Shown: in pieces, positions 18,297-58,460 of the stretch | How positions within the stretch are numbered: position 1 is the stretch's first letter | Layout of the letters: the number at the start of each line of letters is the position of its first letter | From: an uncultured Thermoplasmata archaeon | GTDB taxonomy: Archaea; Thermoplasmatota; Thermoplasmata; UBA10834 | Direction of reading: 5' to 3' | Assembly (NCBI GenBank): GCA_963705355.1 | Contig: OY970070.1 | Location: 1,906,960 to 1,970,959 of the forward strand | Length of the DNA: 64,000 nt | Program-made: the position numbers and the translations under genes | Notes under the pieces: generated by a model | Seen by the model: only the letters and a program-made list of their open reading frames with translations | What the model was told of the DNA's origin: nothing | Database searches by the model: none

Positions 18297-18793
18297 ACCT
18301 CCTCTTTGAGGTCCACGAAGTGCTGGAGATGGAAGGGTATCATCGGGTAGGGGTTGGTGGCGTTCCTCATGTCCTCGAGGTAGAGATAGTAGACGTGGTC
18401 CACCTGCTTCTGCCAGGCGGAAAGAAGTGCCGACGAGATAATGGCCTTCCTTCCTGGCGTGATGTCTATCGCCACCTCGTTCCCCGCAGCTCTCTCCTCC
18501 TCCATGACTGCCGTGATCTTCTTCCCCGACGACGTGAAGTCGCCCTCGTCTATCGTCCTAAGCACAGGCTCGATCCTCTTGCCGTAGGATTCCGTCAGGG
18601 TCCTTATCCATTCTGAGAGAGCGCGAGCATCATTTTCCCTGCCAAGTGTGACGAAAAGATAGATCTTGTCAGGCAGGTAGCCCTTGCAGCAGATCGCCGC
18701 CCAGAGGCTGTTGAGAACAGGCCACTTGCTGATGCCTGTCATCGTGATGTAGATCTTCTGAGCCATTCCCGTCAAGATAACGGCTATGTCCAT
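18287..18793 (-). CDS. minimal CARF-like Rossmann-fold domain protein (putative ligand sensor)
   Basis: Starts at Met56 of the 223-aa ORF (MDIAVILTGMA...). The N-terminal strand plus TG resembles CARF (hhhhS-hG). Signature EVAIDITPGRKAI resembles Csm6/Csx1 IDhTGGTK. The upstream 55 codons are low-complexity and unlikely to be coding. Confidence 0.45.
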   Translation of the reverse strand: MDIAVILTGMAQKIYITMTGISKWPVLNSLWAAICCKGYLPDKIYLFVTLGRENDARALSEWIRTLTESYGKRIEPVLRTIDEGDFTSSGKKITAVMEEERAAGNEVAIDITPGRKAIISSALLSAWQKQVDHVYYLYLEDMRNATNPYPMIPFHLQHFVDLKEEVWK

Positions 18794-52474: not shown

Positions 52475-55363
52475 TTGAGATTCATCGGGAAGGGACAGAG
52501 GAAAATGGCTTCCAGATCATCTTCCAGAAAGCAAACACCACCGTCGAGGCCCCCGCCGACTCAGAGGACCTACGCGGCGCAAATAGAATCCACAGAGGTG
52601 AAGAGGTCGCGCAAGGCCGCCATACTTCAGCTCAAGATGGGCCGGCTAGCACACACGATAGGCATCGCATCCGGCCTCGCGCTAGCACTGACGGCCATAA
52701 TCGCGTACGGCATCATCAACTGGGAATTCCTCCGGAATGCTCCCGATATATTCGCCACTCTGAAATGGATAATTCCGCTAGTCGCAGGCGTGGTAGTCGC
52801 TGCGGTCGCACTCGCGATCAAATGGGAACCGTATTTCACGGACAGGGAGGAGCCGCACTTCGCGATGAGCATCGTCGCGCTCGTGGCTCCTGCCTTCATC
52901 ATAGCGCTCATAGTCCTGGACGAGTACGACTACGTGCAGCTCGGCAGGCCTGCTTGGCTCTATCCTGCCTCTCTCCTGGGGATATGTCTCACAGAGATAT
53001 CGCTCGCGATGACTTGGGAGGGTTCGAGTCCTCGCCGGACCGTCAGCATCGTCTCTGCGATCTTCCCGATTGTCCTGCTCGTATTCCCCATGGTCTACCG
53101 CTTCACGCCCGAGGAATTAGCCAGCACTCTTCCGATGGCATATCTCGGCAGCGCGGTCGCGATCCAGCTCAGCGGCTCGATGCTGCACATCATTGCGAGC
53201 TCGACATCTGTGCAGCAGCGAGAGGTTCTCAAGGCGAGCGACAGCAAACTGCGCGAGGAGCTCCAGGAACTCGAAAAGAAGCGGCACGCGCTGATATACA
53301 GAGAGGACGCGCTAAGATCCAAGGAGTCCGACCTCGAGACCCTTGAGAAGCGGCTCAGCGATGAGACGGCTTCGATAGAGGAAAGGAAGACCCAGGTAGC
53401 CGCGGCCGAGGCGGAGGCGGAGCAGCGTTTCCTGCAGTTGCGCGATGAGAGACAGAAAACCGCGAAGCAGCAGGCGGAGATAGAGGATGCCAAAGAGGCC
53501 CTGAAGCTGAGGCAATCCGATCTAGAGGCTCAGAGAAGGGAGCTGGAGAAGCGCTCCAAGGCGCTGCTCACGAAGGAAGAAGCTGTCTCCACTAGGGAGA
53601 GGGACGCCAACAGGATATTGATCGATGCTCAGGCCAAGGAGCGGGACATAAGGAACAGGCTCTCCGAGGTCGAGGCGGAAGAGAAGGCTCTCGATACCAT
53701 GCGCCAGGAGATCGACGAGCTTCAAGGGGCACTTGCGGACCGCGAGAAACAAGTGGGCGTCCGAGAGAGCGCGCTGGACATGAAGGTTCTGGAGATTGCG
53801 GCAGCGAGGGAAGAGCTTGGGACGGTTGCCAAAGAGAAGACTTCTGTCAAGACCCTCGAGCAGCAGTTGCTGATGAGGCAGGAGTCTCTCGCAGAAAAGG
53901 AAATCGCTCTTAAGACGTCTGAGGACGAGCTGCGTAAGAAATCCGAGCGTGCTGAGAGGCTGATTGCGAGAGCCGACAAGCAGATGAACGAGCTCATCGA
54001 GAAGGAGAACACACTCTTGGCTCGCGAAAAGACTGTCACCGACAATGAGTCCCAGCTGAGGGCGGAGGTCGAAGGCTTGAACGCCAAGCTGGAGGAGATG
54101 CAGAGCGCGCGTGAGTCGGTCACCGACAGGGAGAAGGAGTATCACAGTCTAACCGAGACCACCAGAACAAGACTCTCAACAGTGACATCTCAAGAGGAGG
54201 AGATCGTAAGGAAGATGGCCGCTCTCGAGCGAAGGGAGGAGAAGATCCGGGAGCTCGAGACGAGGCTCAGAACCGAGCACGACACGATGAGCTCCAAACT
54301 GAGGGAGATGCTCGAGAAGGAGAAGGATCTCAGCGCCCACGAAGACGAGATGAACCTGCGCTATGCGGAGCTCAAGGCGATGGAACGAGGGGTTCTGGAG
54401 AGCGTGGACGAGGTCGAGGCGGCCAGGACGTCCTTCGAGGTGCCAGAGGAGGGCGAACAGACTAAGACCTTGGCCTACAGAGAGAGGCGTTTGATTGAGA
54501 AAGAGCAGGAGATGAAGTCGCGGCTCTACCAGCGCGAGAAGGAGCTGGAGGCGCGCGAGCAGTCCCTGCGCGCGCATCTGAAGAAAGACATCGAGGGGAT
54601 GGAAGAGGCCGTCGAGAAGGAGTACGCTGAGGAGAAGGTCAAGACGGGAATAGAACGTCTGGACGCCCTGCTCATGGGCGGCATGCCCTTCGGGTCCAAC
54701 ATCACGTACGTCGGACCGCCATTCATAGGAAAGGAGACCGCCATCCTGTTGTTCTTGGCCGAGGGCCTCAAGAAGGGCATTCCAGCAGTGATTGTGACAA
54801 CCTCAAAATCCCCCGAAGAGATCTCCAAGGATATGGCGCCGATACTACCTACGTTCAAGGAATTCGAGCAGCTCGGTCTCGTGAACTGGGTAGACGCCAC
54901 CGGACTTCAGAGAGCCCCGAGCGCGAGAACTGGAAAACCCAGTCTCATTGCAGCGTTGGGCTCGGGAGATCTGGGCGGGATCGGCAAGGCGATCGACGGA
55001 TGCGTTAACAAGATACAGAAGCAGAGGCACCCATACTTCAGGTTCGCCTACATGTCTCTCTCGATGAGCGTGACGCAGTCGAACGAGAAGGACTCGTTCC
55101 AGTTCGTGCAGACCTTGGTCGGCAAGCTGCGGCAGGCCAACGCGATTTCGGTCTTTGCGCTCGAGCGCGGGATGCACACGGAGCAGCAGCTCGAGTCGAT
55201 TCAGCATCACATGACCGGCGCGATCCAGTTCAAAACGGACAAGCAGAAGACTCTGATAAGCGTCCAGGGCGTAGGCGATGCGCAGACCAGGGACTGGATC
55301 GAGTACAAGCACACGAACAGGGCCCTCATGATCGGAGCATTTTCACTTGAGAGGATAAGGTAG
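52475..55363 (+). CDS. membrane-anchored long coiled-coil protein with C-terminal KaiC/RadA-like domain (degenerate P-loop)
   Basis: About 6 N-terminal TM helices. About 520 aa of heptad-rich coiled coil (E/K/R/L-rich). The C-terminal domain has LDALLMGGMPFGSNITYVGPPFIGKETAILLFLAEGLKKGIPAVIVT (compare KaiC GPPGTGKT). The Walker B position lacks Asp (VFALERG). Confidence 0.65.
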   Translation: MRFIGKGQRKMASRSSSRKQTPPSRPPPTQRTYAAQIESTEVKRSRKAAILQLKMGRLAHTIGIASGLALALTAIIAYGIINWEFLRNAPDIFATLKWIIPLVAGVVVAAVALAIKWEPYFTDREEPHFAMSIVALVAPAFIIALIVLDEYDYVQLGRPAWLYPASLLGICLTEISLAMTWEGSSPRRTVSIVSAIFPIVLLVFPMVYRFTPEELASTLPMAYLGSAVAIQLSGSMLHIIASSTSVQQREVLKASDSKLREELQELEKKRHALIYREDALRSKESDLETLEKRLSDETASIEERKTQVAAAEAEAEQRFLQLRDERQKTAKQQAEIEDAKEALKLRQSDLEAQRRELEKRSKALLTKEEAVSTRERDANRILIDAQAKERDIRNRLSEVEAEEKALDTMRQEIDELQGALADREKQVGVRESALDMKVLEIAAAREELGTVAKEKTSVKTLEQQLLMRQESLAEKEIALKTSEDELRKKSERAERLIARADKQMNELIEKENTLLAREKTVTDNESQLRAEVEGLNAKLEEMQSARESVTDREKEYHSLTETTRTRLSTVTSQEEEIVRKMAALERREEKIRELETRLRTEHDTMSSKLREMLEKEKDLSAHEDEMNLRYAELKAMERGVLESVDEVEAARTSFEVPEEGEQTKTLAYRERRLIEKEQEMKSRLYQREKELEAREQSLRAHLKKDIEGMEEAVEKEYAEEKVKTGIERLDALLMGGMPFGSNITYVGPPFIGKETAILLFLAEGLKKGIPAVIVTTSKSPEEISKDMAPILPTFKEFEQLGLVNWVDATGLQRAPSARTGKPSLIAALGSGDLGGIGKAIDGCVNKIQKQRHPYFRFAYMSLSMSVTQSNEKDSFQFVQTLVGKLRQANAISVFALERGMHTEQQLESIQHHMTGAIQFKTDKQKTLISVQGVGDAQTRDWIEYKHTNRALMIGAFSLERIR

Positions 55364-55512
55364 TTAGAGCCTCGCCTCGGAAAAGCCCATAGGGGAGGAA
55401 AGGCTATCACCGATAAGGGAGGTAATGGCGTGAGTTCAGGTGGAATTGACGATAACACATCCTTCAGATATGCCCTGATTGCCGGCATTCTGTTCGTAGT
55501 GAGTTTCCTGGC

Positions 55513-55740
55513 ATGGTTCTTTGGGGTCATAATCTTCGGGGGGACGAATGGAGTTGGCAGTCGGCATATGCTACATTGGGTGCCATGACGAGCGTGTTCC
55601 TGCTTTGCTCGATTCTGTTCACCATGCTTGGCAAGAGAGAGCTGTCACGAAAGTCACTCGTTGTTGGAGTCCTGCTGTTAATAGGACTGATATTGCTGTT
55701 CGCAATTCGCACAATCACATATCAGCCTGGGTCTGTCTAG
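55513..55740 (+). CDS. small membrane protein
   Basis: 75 aa with two hydrophobic helices. Weak support. Confidence 0.3.
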   Translation: MVLWGHNLRGDEWSWQSAYATLGAMTSVFLLCSILFTMLGKRELSRKSLVVGVLLLIGLILLFAIRTITYQPGSV

Positions 55741-55815
55741 CCCGAGAAAAGACCTCTATGTTGATGTGTCCCCGCCTCAGCATAACATCCACAGGGGAGG
55801 AAAGGCGATTCGGAC

Positions 55816-56319
55816 CTATTGTGACCCCACAGGAACCGGTTTTCTAGCCCTGTAATTAACTGACAACCAGCGAGCTGCAATGGGAACCGAAATCCCCAAG
55901 ACGAGCGTGCCATATTGCATGATGCTGATGCTTGAGTTGGTTCCTGTCCCCATCGCGAAGACGAACCCCCCTGCGGTAAGAACGAGGCCAAGGATGTATT
56001 CATTCGTACCGTGTTTCTCCTCGTCCTTCACATACAGAGGTTTCGATATGAACCACACACCTACCCACATGAAGAAAGTGCAAGCACCCACGAATCCAAT
56101 CGTGAGTTCTCGGTCAAATAGCGCAGCAACCAGCTTGCTCTGTCCAAACAAGGCGAGAACAACTCCAATCAAGAAGACTGCCACATACACTGGTCTCCTG
56201 AGGACTAGTTCCTTTCCTCGCTTCTCAAGGTCGAGCAAGACAAGCGCGAGTACCACTCCCATCAAGACGCCTGTAACCGCAGCGTCGTACAGGTCTTTCA
56301 GCAGCATTACTTCGTCCAT
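55816..56319 (-). CDS. polytopic membrane protein, hypothetical
   Basis: 167 aa with 4-5 TM helices. Confidence 0.45.
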   Translation of the reverse strand: MDEVMLLKDLYDAAVTGVLMGVVLALVLLDLEKRGKELVLRRPVYVAVFLIGVVLALFGQSKLVAALFDRELTIGFVGACTFFMWVGVWFISKPLYVKDEEKHGTNEYILGLVLTAGGFVFAMGTGTNSSISIMQYGTLVLGISVPIAARWLSVNYRARKPVPVGSQ

Positions 56320-56445
56320 TTGCCATTTTCTCCGAGCGCCTGGTTGTGCACCATACGCTCGGCATAGGTATCACATTCGGCATTATTAGCGCTCTGCTTC
56401 ATTTCGCGATTGACTCCTATGAGGCGGTTCCTTGCTAGGAAGAAG

Positions 56446-56520
56446 GGGTTTGCGGCAGCCCGCAAGCCTCTTTGATTGATTCTCAGCCAGTCATCGGAGT
56501 TCAAATCCCGGCGGGAGCAC
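56446..56520 (+). repeat. 75-nt structured direct repeat, copy 1 (tRNA T-arm-like GTTCAAATC core)
   Basis: gggtttgcggcagcccgcaagcc...gccagtcatcggagttcaaatcccggcgggagcac. The hairpin GCGG-cagc-CCGC covaries with GCAG-caac-CTGC in copy 2. Confidence 0.5.
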
Positions 56521-56570
56521 TTCTTCGATCCGGCGGCGACGGGAGCCGTCTGTGCTGGGATGTCATCACC

Positions 56571-57131
56571 TTAGAGGAAGTACTTCGGCCCTGTACTCCA
56601 CGCGTAGAGTACCCCTTCGTCAATCACGAAATCGTAGCTTGTCCAATAAGAGTTGGGGCCTCCCCTCCATGTCACGGTCAGCATGTATGTTACTTCCTCC
56701 ACGAATCCTGAACCGTTCACGACCGAGATCACGAAGTAGTCCTCCTGGCCGAAAGCGCCGTCCCCTGTGATGTCGGTGAGATTCAGCGAGAGAGTGAGGT
56801 TGCCTGCGGTCCTAGTTCCAAGGTTCACCGTCGCGGAACGACCTGTGTTAAGCAACTGTGAGGCATTGAGTGCGTCCCAGCTGCTGCTTCCATTAGAAAA
56901 GCTTATCCAAGGAGCACCGTAATGGTACTGGACCAGGGCAGCGTTATCTCCCGTCCACTTGATACCTTCTGGGACAAGCGACAACGGAGTGTGTTCTGAT
57001 GGAAACTCAGGCTTGGAGAGTATCGTATACAAAGCGTAGGAGACCCCACTGGCAAGGATGCAAACACACAGTACGACCACTATGAAGATCCTTGGTCGTC
57101 GATGCGCGAATTGCCGAACCCTTTCCGTCAT
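56571..57131 (-). CDS. signal-anchored extracellular protein, hypothetical
   Basis: N-terminal TM anchor (IFIVVVLCVCILASGVSYALY), then a beta-rich domain with N-x-S/T sequons. The ORF opens at 57242 (TTG), and Met38 is the likelier start. Confidence 0.45.
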   Translation of the reverse strand: MTERVRQFAHRRPRIFIVVVLCVCILASGVSYALYTILSKPEFPSEHTPLSLVPEGIKWTGDNAALVQYHYGAPWISFSNGSSSWDALNASQLLNTGRSATVNLGTRTAGNLTLSLNLTDITGDGAFGQEDYFVISVVNGSGFVEEVTYMLTVTWRGGPNSYWTSYDFVIDEGVLYAWSTGPKYFL

Positions 57132-57251
57132 GGAGCCGCTAGCCACTCCTCCTAGAACGCATTGCCTGTTCCGTCTCATATAGCTTCGTCTCCCGATGAC
57201 GAAACGGTCAAGAACGAGTAAACAGCCCGAATAAACAACCAATAGAGCGAT

Positions 57252-57322
57252 GGGTTTGCAGCAACCTGCATTCCGATTGACTGTCGAGCCAGTCGTCAGA
57301 ATTCAAATTCAGGCAGGAGCAC
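57252..57322 (+). repeat. 71-nt structured direct repeat, copy 2
   Basis: gggtttgcagcaacctgcattcc...gccagtcgtcagaattcaaattcaggcaggagcac. About 75% identity to copy 1, with the same flanks gggtttgc...gccagtc...ttcaaat...ggagcac. Confidence 0.5.
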
Positions 57323-57497
57323 CTAATCTCATGTTGTTGGAGAAGAATGCGAAAGGGTTTGGGGGGACGGACGACGAATGTTGAGCGTTTGCAGCATGTT
57401 GTTGTTTATACTTTCGACTTCCTCGGTGTAAGGTAGTTTATACCCTCTGCACCTTGTAGCTCCTTGATCTGCCGAGCGTGCTGAAAGTGGGAGAAGA

Positions 57498-58460
57498 ATG
57501 ATCCAGCTGGGCAACGGCATCCTGATCGAGGTTGATGGCTGCTCGTTCAGGTTCGATCCGAAGCGAGTTCTTCTCGGCGAGACGAGCATGATATCTCACG
57601 CCCACTCAGACCACCTTCCGAGTTCTTTCAAGCAGATGTCGGCGATATGTTCTCCTGTCACGAGAGATTTCATCAAGGCGCGGAGGAACAAGGAGATCGG
57701 GATAGACTCCGATGACCGTGTGAAGGAGCTTGAGGCCGGGCACATCGCGGGCTCGAGAATGTTCTTCGTTAGCGGGGACACGCGGGTCCTGTACACGGGC
57801 GATTTCTGCACGAGGGAGAAAGCAAACACAGAAGCAGCAAAGCCGCACAAATGCGACATCCTGATCACCGAGGCAACCTACGGCAAACCGCAGTACATCT
57901 TTCCAGACCACGAAGAGATCATGTCAGTCGCAAGGGATTGGGTGCGAGACATAGTGAAGAGGGATGGATGCGCAGTCCTCTTCGCTTATCCACTCGGAAA
58001 GTCACAGGAGCTCACGGCCTACTTCAGAGATCTTCCGTTGGTCCTTCACCCTGCGATTGCCGAGAACAACCGGATACTCAGGAGGCATGGCTACGAGCTC
58101 GCCCAGACGGAATTCGATGCTCATCGGACGAAGCCGCCGTTCGTGTACATCACGTCTGGATTGGGCAAGGACGCGCCTCGTGTGCAGTCGTTGAGAAAGC
58201 ACGGAGCCAAGACGGCAGCATTCTCAGGATGGGCATTGGAGAAGGGTTTCAGATACCAGTCCGGGGTCGACGAAGCGTTCCCGGTTTCGGACCATTGCGG
58301 TTTCGACGAACTCACGGAGTTCATCAGAAGGTGCAGTCCCCAAAACGTTTTCACGAATCACGGGTTCTCAAAAGAGTTGGCGATGCATGTGCGTCGCTCG
58401 CTGGGGATTCAGGCTCAGCCGTTGGTTGCCAGGCAGAGGACTTTGGATCACTTCTGCTGA
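57498..58460 (+). CDS. MBL-fold metallo-hydrolase (possibly beta-CASP-related)
   Basis: HAHSDH motif plus downstream His/Asp ligands. 320 aa. Confidence 0.65.
   Translation: MIQLGNGILIEVDGCSFRFDPKRVLLGETSMISHAHSDHLPSSFKQMSAICSPVTRDFIKARRNKEIGIDSDDRVKELEAGHIAGSRMFFVSGDTRVLYTGDFCTREKANTEAAKPHKCDILITEATYGKPQYIFPDHEEIMSVARDWVRDIVKRDGCAVLFAYPLGKSQELTAYFRDLPLVLHPAIAENNRILRRHGYELAQTEFDAHRTKPPFVYITSGLGKDAPRVQSLRKHGAKTAAFSGWALEKGFRYQSGVDEAFPVSDHCGFDELTEFIRRCSPQNVFTNHGFSKELAMHVRRSLGIQAQPLVARQRTLDHFC

Follow-up and report, generated by a model that had tools for sequence, protein, structure and literature searches.

Within a 64,000-nucleotide stretch of the genome of an uncultured Thermoplasmata archaeon (the window), two imperfect direct repeats, here called c1 and c2, lie in the spacer between a KaiC-like gene (52475-55363, + strand) and a metallo-beta-lactamase/RMMBL gene (57498-58460, + strand). 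The genome, G000, is a single contig of 1.98 Mb with 56% G+C, in which the window corresponds to G000:C1:1906960-1970959; G001, G002, G003 and so on are the related genomes with which it was compared. The KaiC-like and RMMBL genes, which form the conserved chromosomal flanks, are neighbours in all the congeners examined. In G004, G016, G003, G010 and G014 no more than 39-61 nt separate the two genes, as against 2134 nt (G000), 2850 nt (G002), 1152 nt (G006) and 1750 nt (G007) elsewhere, and the content of these longer spacers differs. The G000 spacer holds a strain-variable insertion of 2.07 kb (55364-57436, no strand assigned), with a 10-bp direct repeat, TAAGGTAGTT, at its edges. The left copy of this repeat (55356-55365, + strand) includes the KaiC-like stop codon, and the right copy (57429-57438, + strand) is followed by the conserved RMMBL promoter region.

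The insertion contains c1 and c2, two minus-strand genes for membrane proteins, two copies of a junction repeat (r33) and a terminal module (unit R). An earlier note made from the letters of the window alone (the original prediction) had described c1 and c2 as two imperfect direct repeats about 110-120 nt upstream of minus-strand genes for membrane or secreted proteins, and this description holds well. Both a repeat search and a hidden Markov model (HMM) recovered the repeats on the + strand, c1 at 56444-56522 and c2, which is older and more decayed, at 57250-57325; both are also supported by alignment, and c1 by its match to tRNA-Glu. The start of c1 lies 127 nt from the ATG (56319) of the gene at 55816-56319, and that of c2 121 nt from the ATG (57131) of the gene at 56571-57131, and the translation of either open reading frame (ORF) is a membrane-anchored protein. 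Compared over their whole length, the two copies are identical at 56 of 74 aligned bases (76%), with seven gapped columns. The repeat search gave a 36-nt block of 83% identity (56485-56520 with 57287-57322) and a 19-nt block of 84% identity (56446-56464 with 57252-57270).

The HMM was built on the four full copies in G000 and searched against the whole 1.98-Mb genome. Two more full copies were found there, c3 (G000 1607128-1607203, minus strand) and c4 (G000 1623220-1623290, + strand), together with several degenerate partial ones. The four full copies scored between 1e-17 and 1e-24 (8e-24 for c1 and 8e-18 for c2), and these genome-wide E-values show that the likeness of c1 and c2 is not due to chance. 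Among the relatives, 11 full or near-full matches were found in nine congeners. Full or near-full copies, as recognised by the sequence model of the unit, are confined to the genus; matches in other genera cover only the tRNA-like 3' half of the unit, mostly with E-values of 1e-5 to 1e-2, and are taken to be mainly real tRNA genes, as confirmed just for the two tRNA-Glu genes of G000.

The protein-coding content of the insertion varies. To the left of c1, the gene at 55816-56319 (minus strand) encodes a 167-aa multi-pass membrane protein without a homolog in 40 relatives of the same taxonomic family, which we read as strain-specific cargo. The product of the gene between c1 and c2 (56571-57131, minus strand) has 186 aa, a membrane anchor at its N-terminus and no Pfam match. 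It belongs to a fast-evolving, multi-copy family (22-37% identity, up to six matches per genome) that is present in 38 of the 41 genomes of the taxonomic family, G000 counted. The overlapping + strand ORF looks like antisense junk.

In G002 the flanking genes are 96-98% identical to those of G000 and the cargo is different. The two genomes become homologous again at 57279, a point within c2 that corresponds to the anticodon loop; to the left of this point G002 has another type of arm, preceded by a 27-codon basic ORF and a copy of r33. Because the breakpoint falls inside the unit, c2 marks a junction at which the neighbouring DNA was exchanged. The assembled metagenome contigs of four DNA runs, in which rare events are not visible, gave no clean c1 x c2 deletion, and a G002-like arrangement was seen in one peat sample. 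One contig joined 56520 to 57352 with 16 other letters between; it was of low depth and of 88% likeness, and was set aside as most likely a composite from another organism.

Architecture and folding of the repeat unit

The 5' 40 nt of the unit are not tRNA-like, and comprise AAGGGTTTG, a short hairpin, a variable linker and the motif pair GATTGAT-N4-AGCCAGT. From the 'A GCCAG T' of this pair onwards, the unit corresponds to positions 38-73 of real tRNA-Glu genes in other Thermoplasmata, the anticodon stem of which is CTGGC/GCCAG. In c1 the arm starts with AAGGGGTTTG, followed by the hairpin (56450-56465), GATTGAT (56474-56480), AGCCAGT (56485-56491), a degenerate 5' strand of the T-stem and then 56499-56522, where all 24 nt are identical to the 3' ends of both G000 tRNA-Glu genes. 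This identity spans the T-loop, the acceptor strand and 3 nt past the discriminator base. In c2 the hairpin lies at 57257-57270 and AGCCAGT at 57287-57293, and 19 of the 24 bases of the tRNA-Glu 3' block are kept. Given the identity at the 3' end of c1 and the match from position 38 onwards, the 3' 40 nt of the unit are the 3' half of a tRNA-Glu whose T-stem has a decayed 5' strand. The T-loop-like GTTCAAATC noticed in the original prediction is indeed present in the repeats, and of the alternatives that it listed, derivation from a tRNA is the one that this 3' part bears out.

The two tRNA-Glu genes of G000 lie well away from the window, tRNA-Glu(TTC) at 1048376-1048451 and tRNA-Glu(CTC) at 1361459-1361561. 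The latter has a 27-nt intron at 37/38 and was read by hand, ARAGORN labelling it tRNA-Ser(tga). Its intron has a 10-mer, TTTGCGGCAG, in common with the hairpin of the unit arm, which is probably a coincidence. A degenerate unit is also present about 100 nt downstream of this gene, at 1361658-1361710.

A scan of the genome collection with a specific pattern of the unit picked up, for the most part, genuine tRNA genes from other archaea (for Gly, Arg and Glu), which shows that the tRNA-like part of the unit is a normal tRNA 3' half. In viral contigs the specific pattern gave no matches, and the 80 matches listed for a loose pattern (out of 120 stretches found) were chance matches, none being confirmed by the HMM.

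A leader followed by positions 38 to 73 of tRNA-Glu is also the layout that would be expected of a split tRNA gene, the 3' half being joined in trans to a separate 5' half. Split tRNA genes are known in Nanoarchaeum equitans and Caldivirga maquilingensis, and a free-standing tRNA 3' half after non-tRNA sequence is what they and the present units have in common; the numerous intron-containing tRNAs of G000 mean, moreover, that a splicing endonuclease is present. Yet BLAST found no tRNA-Glu 5' half in the genome beyond the two genes themselves, and an incomplete fuzzy search for a complement to the leader, or for a complementary trailer, gave chance-level matches only. The intact tRNA-Glu(TTC) and tRNA-Glu(CTC) genes cover both codons, most copies have a broken T-stem, c4 and the G016 copy (G016_e) have other sequence in place of the acceptor strand, and the 3' anticodon-stem strand GCCAG is without its CTGGC partner. 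We therefore regard a split tRNA as extremely improbable.

The original prediction had instead favoured a conserved RNA structure, on the grounds that the hairpin of c1 (GCGG-cagc-CCGC) differs from that of c2 (GCAG-caac-CTGC) by a paired, compensatory change. The difference is as described, but its meaning changes in an alignment of 14 full-length copies (four from G000 and ten from eight congeners). The pair in question is G.T in 10 of the 14, G-C in three and A-T in one; since it is mostly G.T, c1 and c2 are each one transition away from the common state, and no compensated double change is involved. Variation at the paired positions is mostly one-sided, of the G.U kind.

Two folds were compared with shuffled controls, with 500 shuffles for each measure. 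For the hairpin together with a tRNA-type T-arm, 72% of alignment cells were paired as against 71% in the shuffles, 155 of which were as high, and the covariation score was equalled or beaten in 43. RNAalifold did draw a three-helix fold, with 80.7% of cells paired, but the shuffles gave 80.1% (130/500 as high) and 212 of them reached its covariation score. Of five measures, not one passed the usual bar for either fold on the 14 copies. In the T-stem, 54:68 fails to pair in 11 of the 14 copies and 56:66 in 10, and the z-scores of single-sequence folds, -0.7 to -2.2, are unremarkable. A scan of the window at the Rfam gathering thresholds found just the two real tRNAs and nothing at the repeats, a permissive scan of 56300-57500 gave sR10 as its sole match (E = 1.8), and ARAGORN, whether or not introns were allowed, found no tRNA at the repeats. 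No RNA sequencing run was listed as containing the stretch.

A lineage-specific structured RNA could have taken the form of a small RNA (sRNA), a 5' leader of the minus-strand envelope genes, or an RNase P/tRNase Z processing signal punctuating cassette transcripts. Nearly all copies do have the hairpin, with 93% of cells paired in its 4-bp core, the three-helix fold can be drawn, and many junctions read as a tRNA-like 3' end followed directly by a repeat with a GGAGG ribosome-binding motif and a start codon, as tRNA-punctuated processing would give. Set against this are the failure of every measure to exceed the shuffles, the broken T-stem, the ordinary z-scores and the lack of any Rfam match passing a bar of E = 1. 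In addition, the linker between the hairpin and the arm motifs varies from 0 to 7 nt, the lower stem is lost in many of the aligned copies, copies come and go along with insertions and do not keep syntenic positions, and the neighbouring genes are mutually unrelated, one being an ORFan. All three forms are accordingly very unlikely, and the gene at 56571-57131 is cargo and not the target of a regulatory leader. Two further candidates were rejected. A protein-coding unit fails because the ORF that runs through c4 is broken by indels between the copies; and a minus-strand terminator, suggested by a T-rich run after the hairpin, is inconsistent among the copies.

tRNA-Glu loci and integrases in related genomes

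In the congeners the copies lie mostly downstream of a tRNA-Glu gene, in the same orientation and at a distance of 0.3-2.3 kb. G010 has units 1.5 and 2.3 kb behind tRNA-Glu(TTC), and G018 has one 1.0 kb behind the same gene; the unit of G004 is 0.34 kb behind tRNA-Glu(CTC), and those of G005 and G011 are about 1.1 and 0.9 kb behind tRNA-Glu. The copies sit in insertions, because the genes found beyond them follow the tRNA directly in G000.

The clearest example is an island in G001. The contig starts with the tRNA-Glu 3' end (4-30), next to which lies an intact gene for a 388-aa tyrosine integrase of the Phage_integrase family (50-1216, E = 6e-19). A resolvase, a weak match to DUF3987 (just under the Pfam cut-off), ParB and a large beta-helix/PKD surface protein make up the middle, and 18.4 kb on, a unit (18481-18553) closes the island, followed by conserved chromosomal genes. 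The genes next to this unit flank tRNA-Glu(CTC) in other genomes. This arrangement gives a complete picture of attachment (att) sites, with attL, island and attR in order. Remnants of the G001 integrase are found beside tRNA-Glu in G018 (residues 230-388, 76% identity), and in G010 and G005 (the last 26-27 residues).

After the tRNA in G001, G010 and G018 there is a conserved right arm with the pair ACTGGCT-N5-TCAATTC. This is the inverted image of the GATTGAT-N4-AGCCAGT of the left arm, with the core between them, and the inverted motifs flanking the core are putative symmetric protein-binding sites. The first unit of G010 (G010_e1) is followed by the right arm that also stands behind the tRNA itself; this is the P-O-P' junction to be expected of tandem integrations.

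Taken together, these observations make it highly probable that c1 and c2 are attR-type relics, each a P arm plus core, of a family of integrative elements with a tyrosine integrase that target the tRNA-Glu 3' end in this Thermoplasmata genus. The circular form of such an element would carry an attP with three parts: a left arm with AAGGGTTTG, the hairpin and GATTGAT-N4-AGCCAGT; a core copying tRNA-Glu from the T-loop to about 10 nt past its 3' end; and a right arm with the inverted pair, adjoining the integrase gene. Recombination with the tRNA gene would rebuild the tRNA on the integrase side, whilst the far side would keep the left arm and the tRNA 3' end, that is, the 75-nt unit. Repeated integration and decay would then stack units with small pieces of cargo between them. 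The units in the window, no longer at a tRNA, ride in the decayed 2.07-kb insertion at the 3' end of the KaiC-like gene, and are presumably now inert.

Several features that mark an att site are found here. Both window copies carry a tRNA 3' identity block (24/24 in c1, 19/24 in c2); symmetric motifs around the crossover region are present, by sequence, in G001, G010 and G018; and the DNA so bounded is present in some relatives and absent from others, both at the KaiC-RMMBL spacer and for a 25.2-kb island described below. A position at the end of an integrase insertion, with an intact target tRNA at the other end, is seen in the relatives and not for c1 and c2.

A number of points weigh against this interpretation. 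None of the four G000 copies adjoins a tRNA-Glu gene, and a search of the window revealed neither tRNA-Glu nor an integrase or integrase remnant; for this reason the att role of c1 and c2 is drawn from the relatives, whose Glu-unit loci have no genes in common with the window. The edges of the insertion are TAAGGTAGTT and not a tRNA-like core. The tRNA identity block starts at the T-loop and the breakpoint between G000 and G002 about 23 nt upstream of it, so that the two would place the crossover differently. Alignment of the flank behind the second G010 unit (G010_e2) with that behind the G000 tRNA-Glu(TTC) gene extended over 7 nt only. Lastly, no circular or excised form was seen in the assembled contigs, which are blind to rare excision products. 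We infer both the exact crossover point and the route by which Glu-type units came into islands at non-tRNA sites. As for the remaining alternative in the original prediction, that the repeats are att-like sites flanking the gene at 56571-57131, the relatives do tie the units to integrative elements, and the att-like character therefore stands; the gene between them, though, is variable cargo within a larger insertion.

Other tRNA ends, islands and junction repeats

The arm is not restricted to tRNA-Glu. The same order of AAGGGTTTG, GATTGA and AGCCAG is joined to the end of tRNA-Ala(TGC) at G000 656422 (29/29 nt), beside an integrase fragment, to that of tRNA-Arg(CCT) at 1684329 (23/23 nt) and to that of tRNA-Ala(CGC) at 1830220 (minus strand). 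Ends of tRNA-Gly(GCC) and tRNA-Leu(CAG) are also joined to it (14/14 nt each), and sites of this architecture with non-Glu tRNA ends lie at 1678192, 939555 and 336318 as well. The identity to the tRNA begins at the T-loop or the variable loop. This pattern suggests a single integrase superfamily with exchangeable tRNA targets.

Unit R, at the right terminus of the window insertion (57352-57428, + strand), is an arm-like module in which AAAGGGTTTG is followed by a G-rich, hairpin-prone stretch. It occurs also at G000 1623315, 795127 (minus strand) and 345985, and after copies of the unit in G016, G011 and G017. It stands at the right-hand end of insertions into non-tRNA sites, and its 3' part varies by site. 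A possible role for unit R is that of the P arm at an att site whose core does not come from a tRNA.

One such insertion is the 25.2-kb island upstream of thyX (G000 1598174-1623389), which has an 11-bp direct repeat, CAAAAGCATTT, at both ends and is absent from G002, G004 and G006. Its 415-aa tyrosine integrase (1598202-1599446, minus strand) lies 29 nt from the left junction, and among its cargo genes are those for an Mrr-type restriction endonuclease and an MttB-family methyltransferase. On the right the island ends in c4 and unit R, and c3 lies inside it in inverted orientation. Because this terminal module matches the c2 and unit R of the window, the window insertion looks like a stripped-down relative of such islands, which would have kept the right-terminal module and little cargo. 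Beside the variable region at 334-373 kb, which is rich in r33, lies a paralogue of the 415-aa integrase.

The junction repeat r33 is 24-33 nt long. One window copy (AAAAGCCCATAGGGGAGGAAAGGC, 55381-55404, + strand) comes directly after the KaiC-like stop codon, and a variant copy (TAACATCC...) lies at 55783-55806 (+ strand). G000 has 42 copies, with clusters at 163-184, 334-373, 1604-1611 and 1680-1684 kb. The repeat holds a GGAGG motif and usually has a start codon within the 5-30 nt that follow the repeat. From a reading of the flanks by eye, about one third of the 42 copies are directly preceded by an arm or by sequence like a tRNA 3' end. In a small module found at G000 352764-352990 and, in G002, in the KaiC-RMMBL spacer (about 10.7-11.0 kb in the orientation used), r33 is combined with a strongly basic ORF of 27 codons (MKLPRSTKSKLKRR...) and a type-B arm that has a tRNA-like end. 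Since it is placed differently in two genomes that are about 98% identical, this module has moved.

Such observations raise the question of whether a cassette platform like that of integrons is still active, in which small, promoter-poor cassettes (r33, gene, arm and tRNA-like core) are moved in trans by the island integrases between tRNA genes and secondary sites, the KaiC-RMMBL spacer included. The displaced mini-module, with its 27-aa ORF, is what such a platform would produce, and in G004 the succession of tRNA-Glu(CTC), an r33-like sequence, about 250 nt and a unit resembles a 0.4-kb mini-insertion. The frequent arm or tRNA-like end before r33 points the same way, as do the r33 arrays that adjoin paralogous integrases at 333.9 kb and 1598.2 kb, and the depth of r33 in sediment and wetland metagenome contigs, which is 7-180x that of flanking single-copy DNA, with many different neighbours. 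Nevertheless, c1 and c2 are not followed by r33, their cargo and the r33 copies are on opposite strands, a cognate integrase is not found near the window, and no excised or circular form was seen, although contigs cannot show rare events. Ordinary accretion and decay of larger elements gives the same pattern, and we think a platform that is still active unlikely. Somewhat less doubtful, though still improbable, is a broader proposal, in which the Glu-type unit, r33 and unit R would be working parts of one undescribed archaeal gene-capture system. Its attP would be modular, with the common AAGGGTTTG/GATTGA/AGCCAG arm, an exchangeable core from tRNA 3' ends or gene ends, and r33 as a right arm supplying the ribosome-binding site. 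A family of Thermoplasmata integrases would use it to carry mini-cassettes of one gene each, in trans, from tRNA genes to secondary chromosomal sites or the reverse, making the system an integron analogue built on tRNA ends, with c1, the gene and c2 as one stack.

The gene content of G000 is that of an archaeon: among the products are KaiC-like proteins, MttB, an EMC3/TMCO1-like protein and a Cbf5 carrying PUA and DKCLD domains, and the genome has many tRNA genes with introns.

Significance and comparison with known systems

The reading of c1 and c2 as attR-type relics removes a candidate new structured RNA, which is explained as mobile-element scarring. It also maps a concrete att architecture for an uncultured Thermoplasmata genus, namely a common arm, a core from the tRNA 3' end and an inverted right-arm motif, and marks the KaiC-like/RMMBL spacer and the region upstream of thyX as insertion hot spots. 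It adds to the evidence that small modules bounded by tRNA ends are among the main routes by which these archaea turn over their genes. Should the modules still be mobile in trans, the system would merit experiments.

The 3' ends of tRNA genes have long been known as integration sites, and partial-tRNA repeats at att sites are typical of prophages, integrative plasmids and genomic islands. Archaeal tyrosine integrases include those of the pNOB8 type, which are non-partitioning, and sublocation classes of tRNA integration sites were reportedly set out by Williams in 2002. The two window repeats themselves are relics, and an ordinary footprint of archaeal integrative elements. The units of the family agree with the usual att repeats in joining a tRNA 3' end, from the T-loop to beyond the acceptor end, to the arm DNA of an element; in the position of the G001 unit at the far end of an integrase insertion at the target tRNA; in the inverted motif pairs around the core; and in the decayed integrases beside the tRNA in several relatives. 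They differ in that the window pair is remote from tRNA-Glu and integrases alike and is enclosed in an insertion with 10-bp borders of its own, and in that the arm (AAGGGTTTG/GATTGAT-N4-AGCCAGT) is common to the sites for several tRNAs. No description of an arm common to several tRNA targets was found in the literature searched.

Integrons and CALIN arrays, archaeal integrons included, consist of short gene cassettes separated by a recurring recombination-site repeat. Strain-variable cassette arrays with a recurring site-like repeat are found here too, but there is no IntI-type integrase, those nearby being ordinary Phage_integrase-family proteins. The unit, moreover, is a copy of a tRNA end plus arm motifs, with a hairpin of 4-6 bp and no attC-type palindrome, as judged without a formal attC model.

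The tycheposons of Prochlorococcus offer a further comparison. In these, serial integration at one tRNA is described as pushing older elements inward, the islands are littered with partial tRNAs and fragmented integrases, their small cargo modules vary between close strains, and excision was shown by PCR (bioRxiv 10.1101/2020.12.28.424599). The present units belong to another domain of life and another integrase lineage, lie also in sub-terminal positions within islands at non-tRNA sites, and are known from sequence alone. What the two systems have in common is serial stacking, a litter of partial tRNAs and fragmented integrases, and small cargo that varies from strain to strain.

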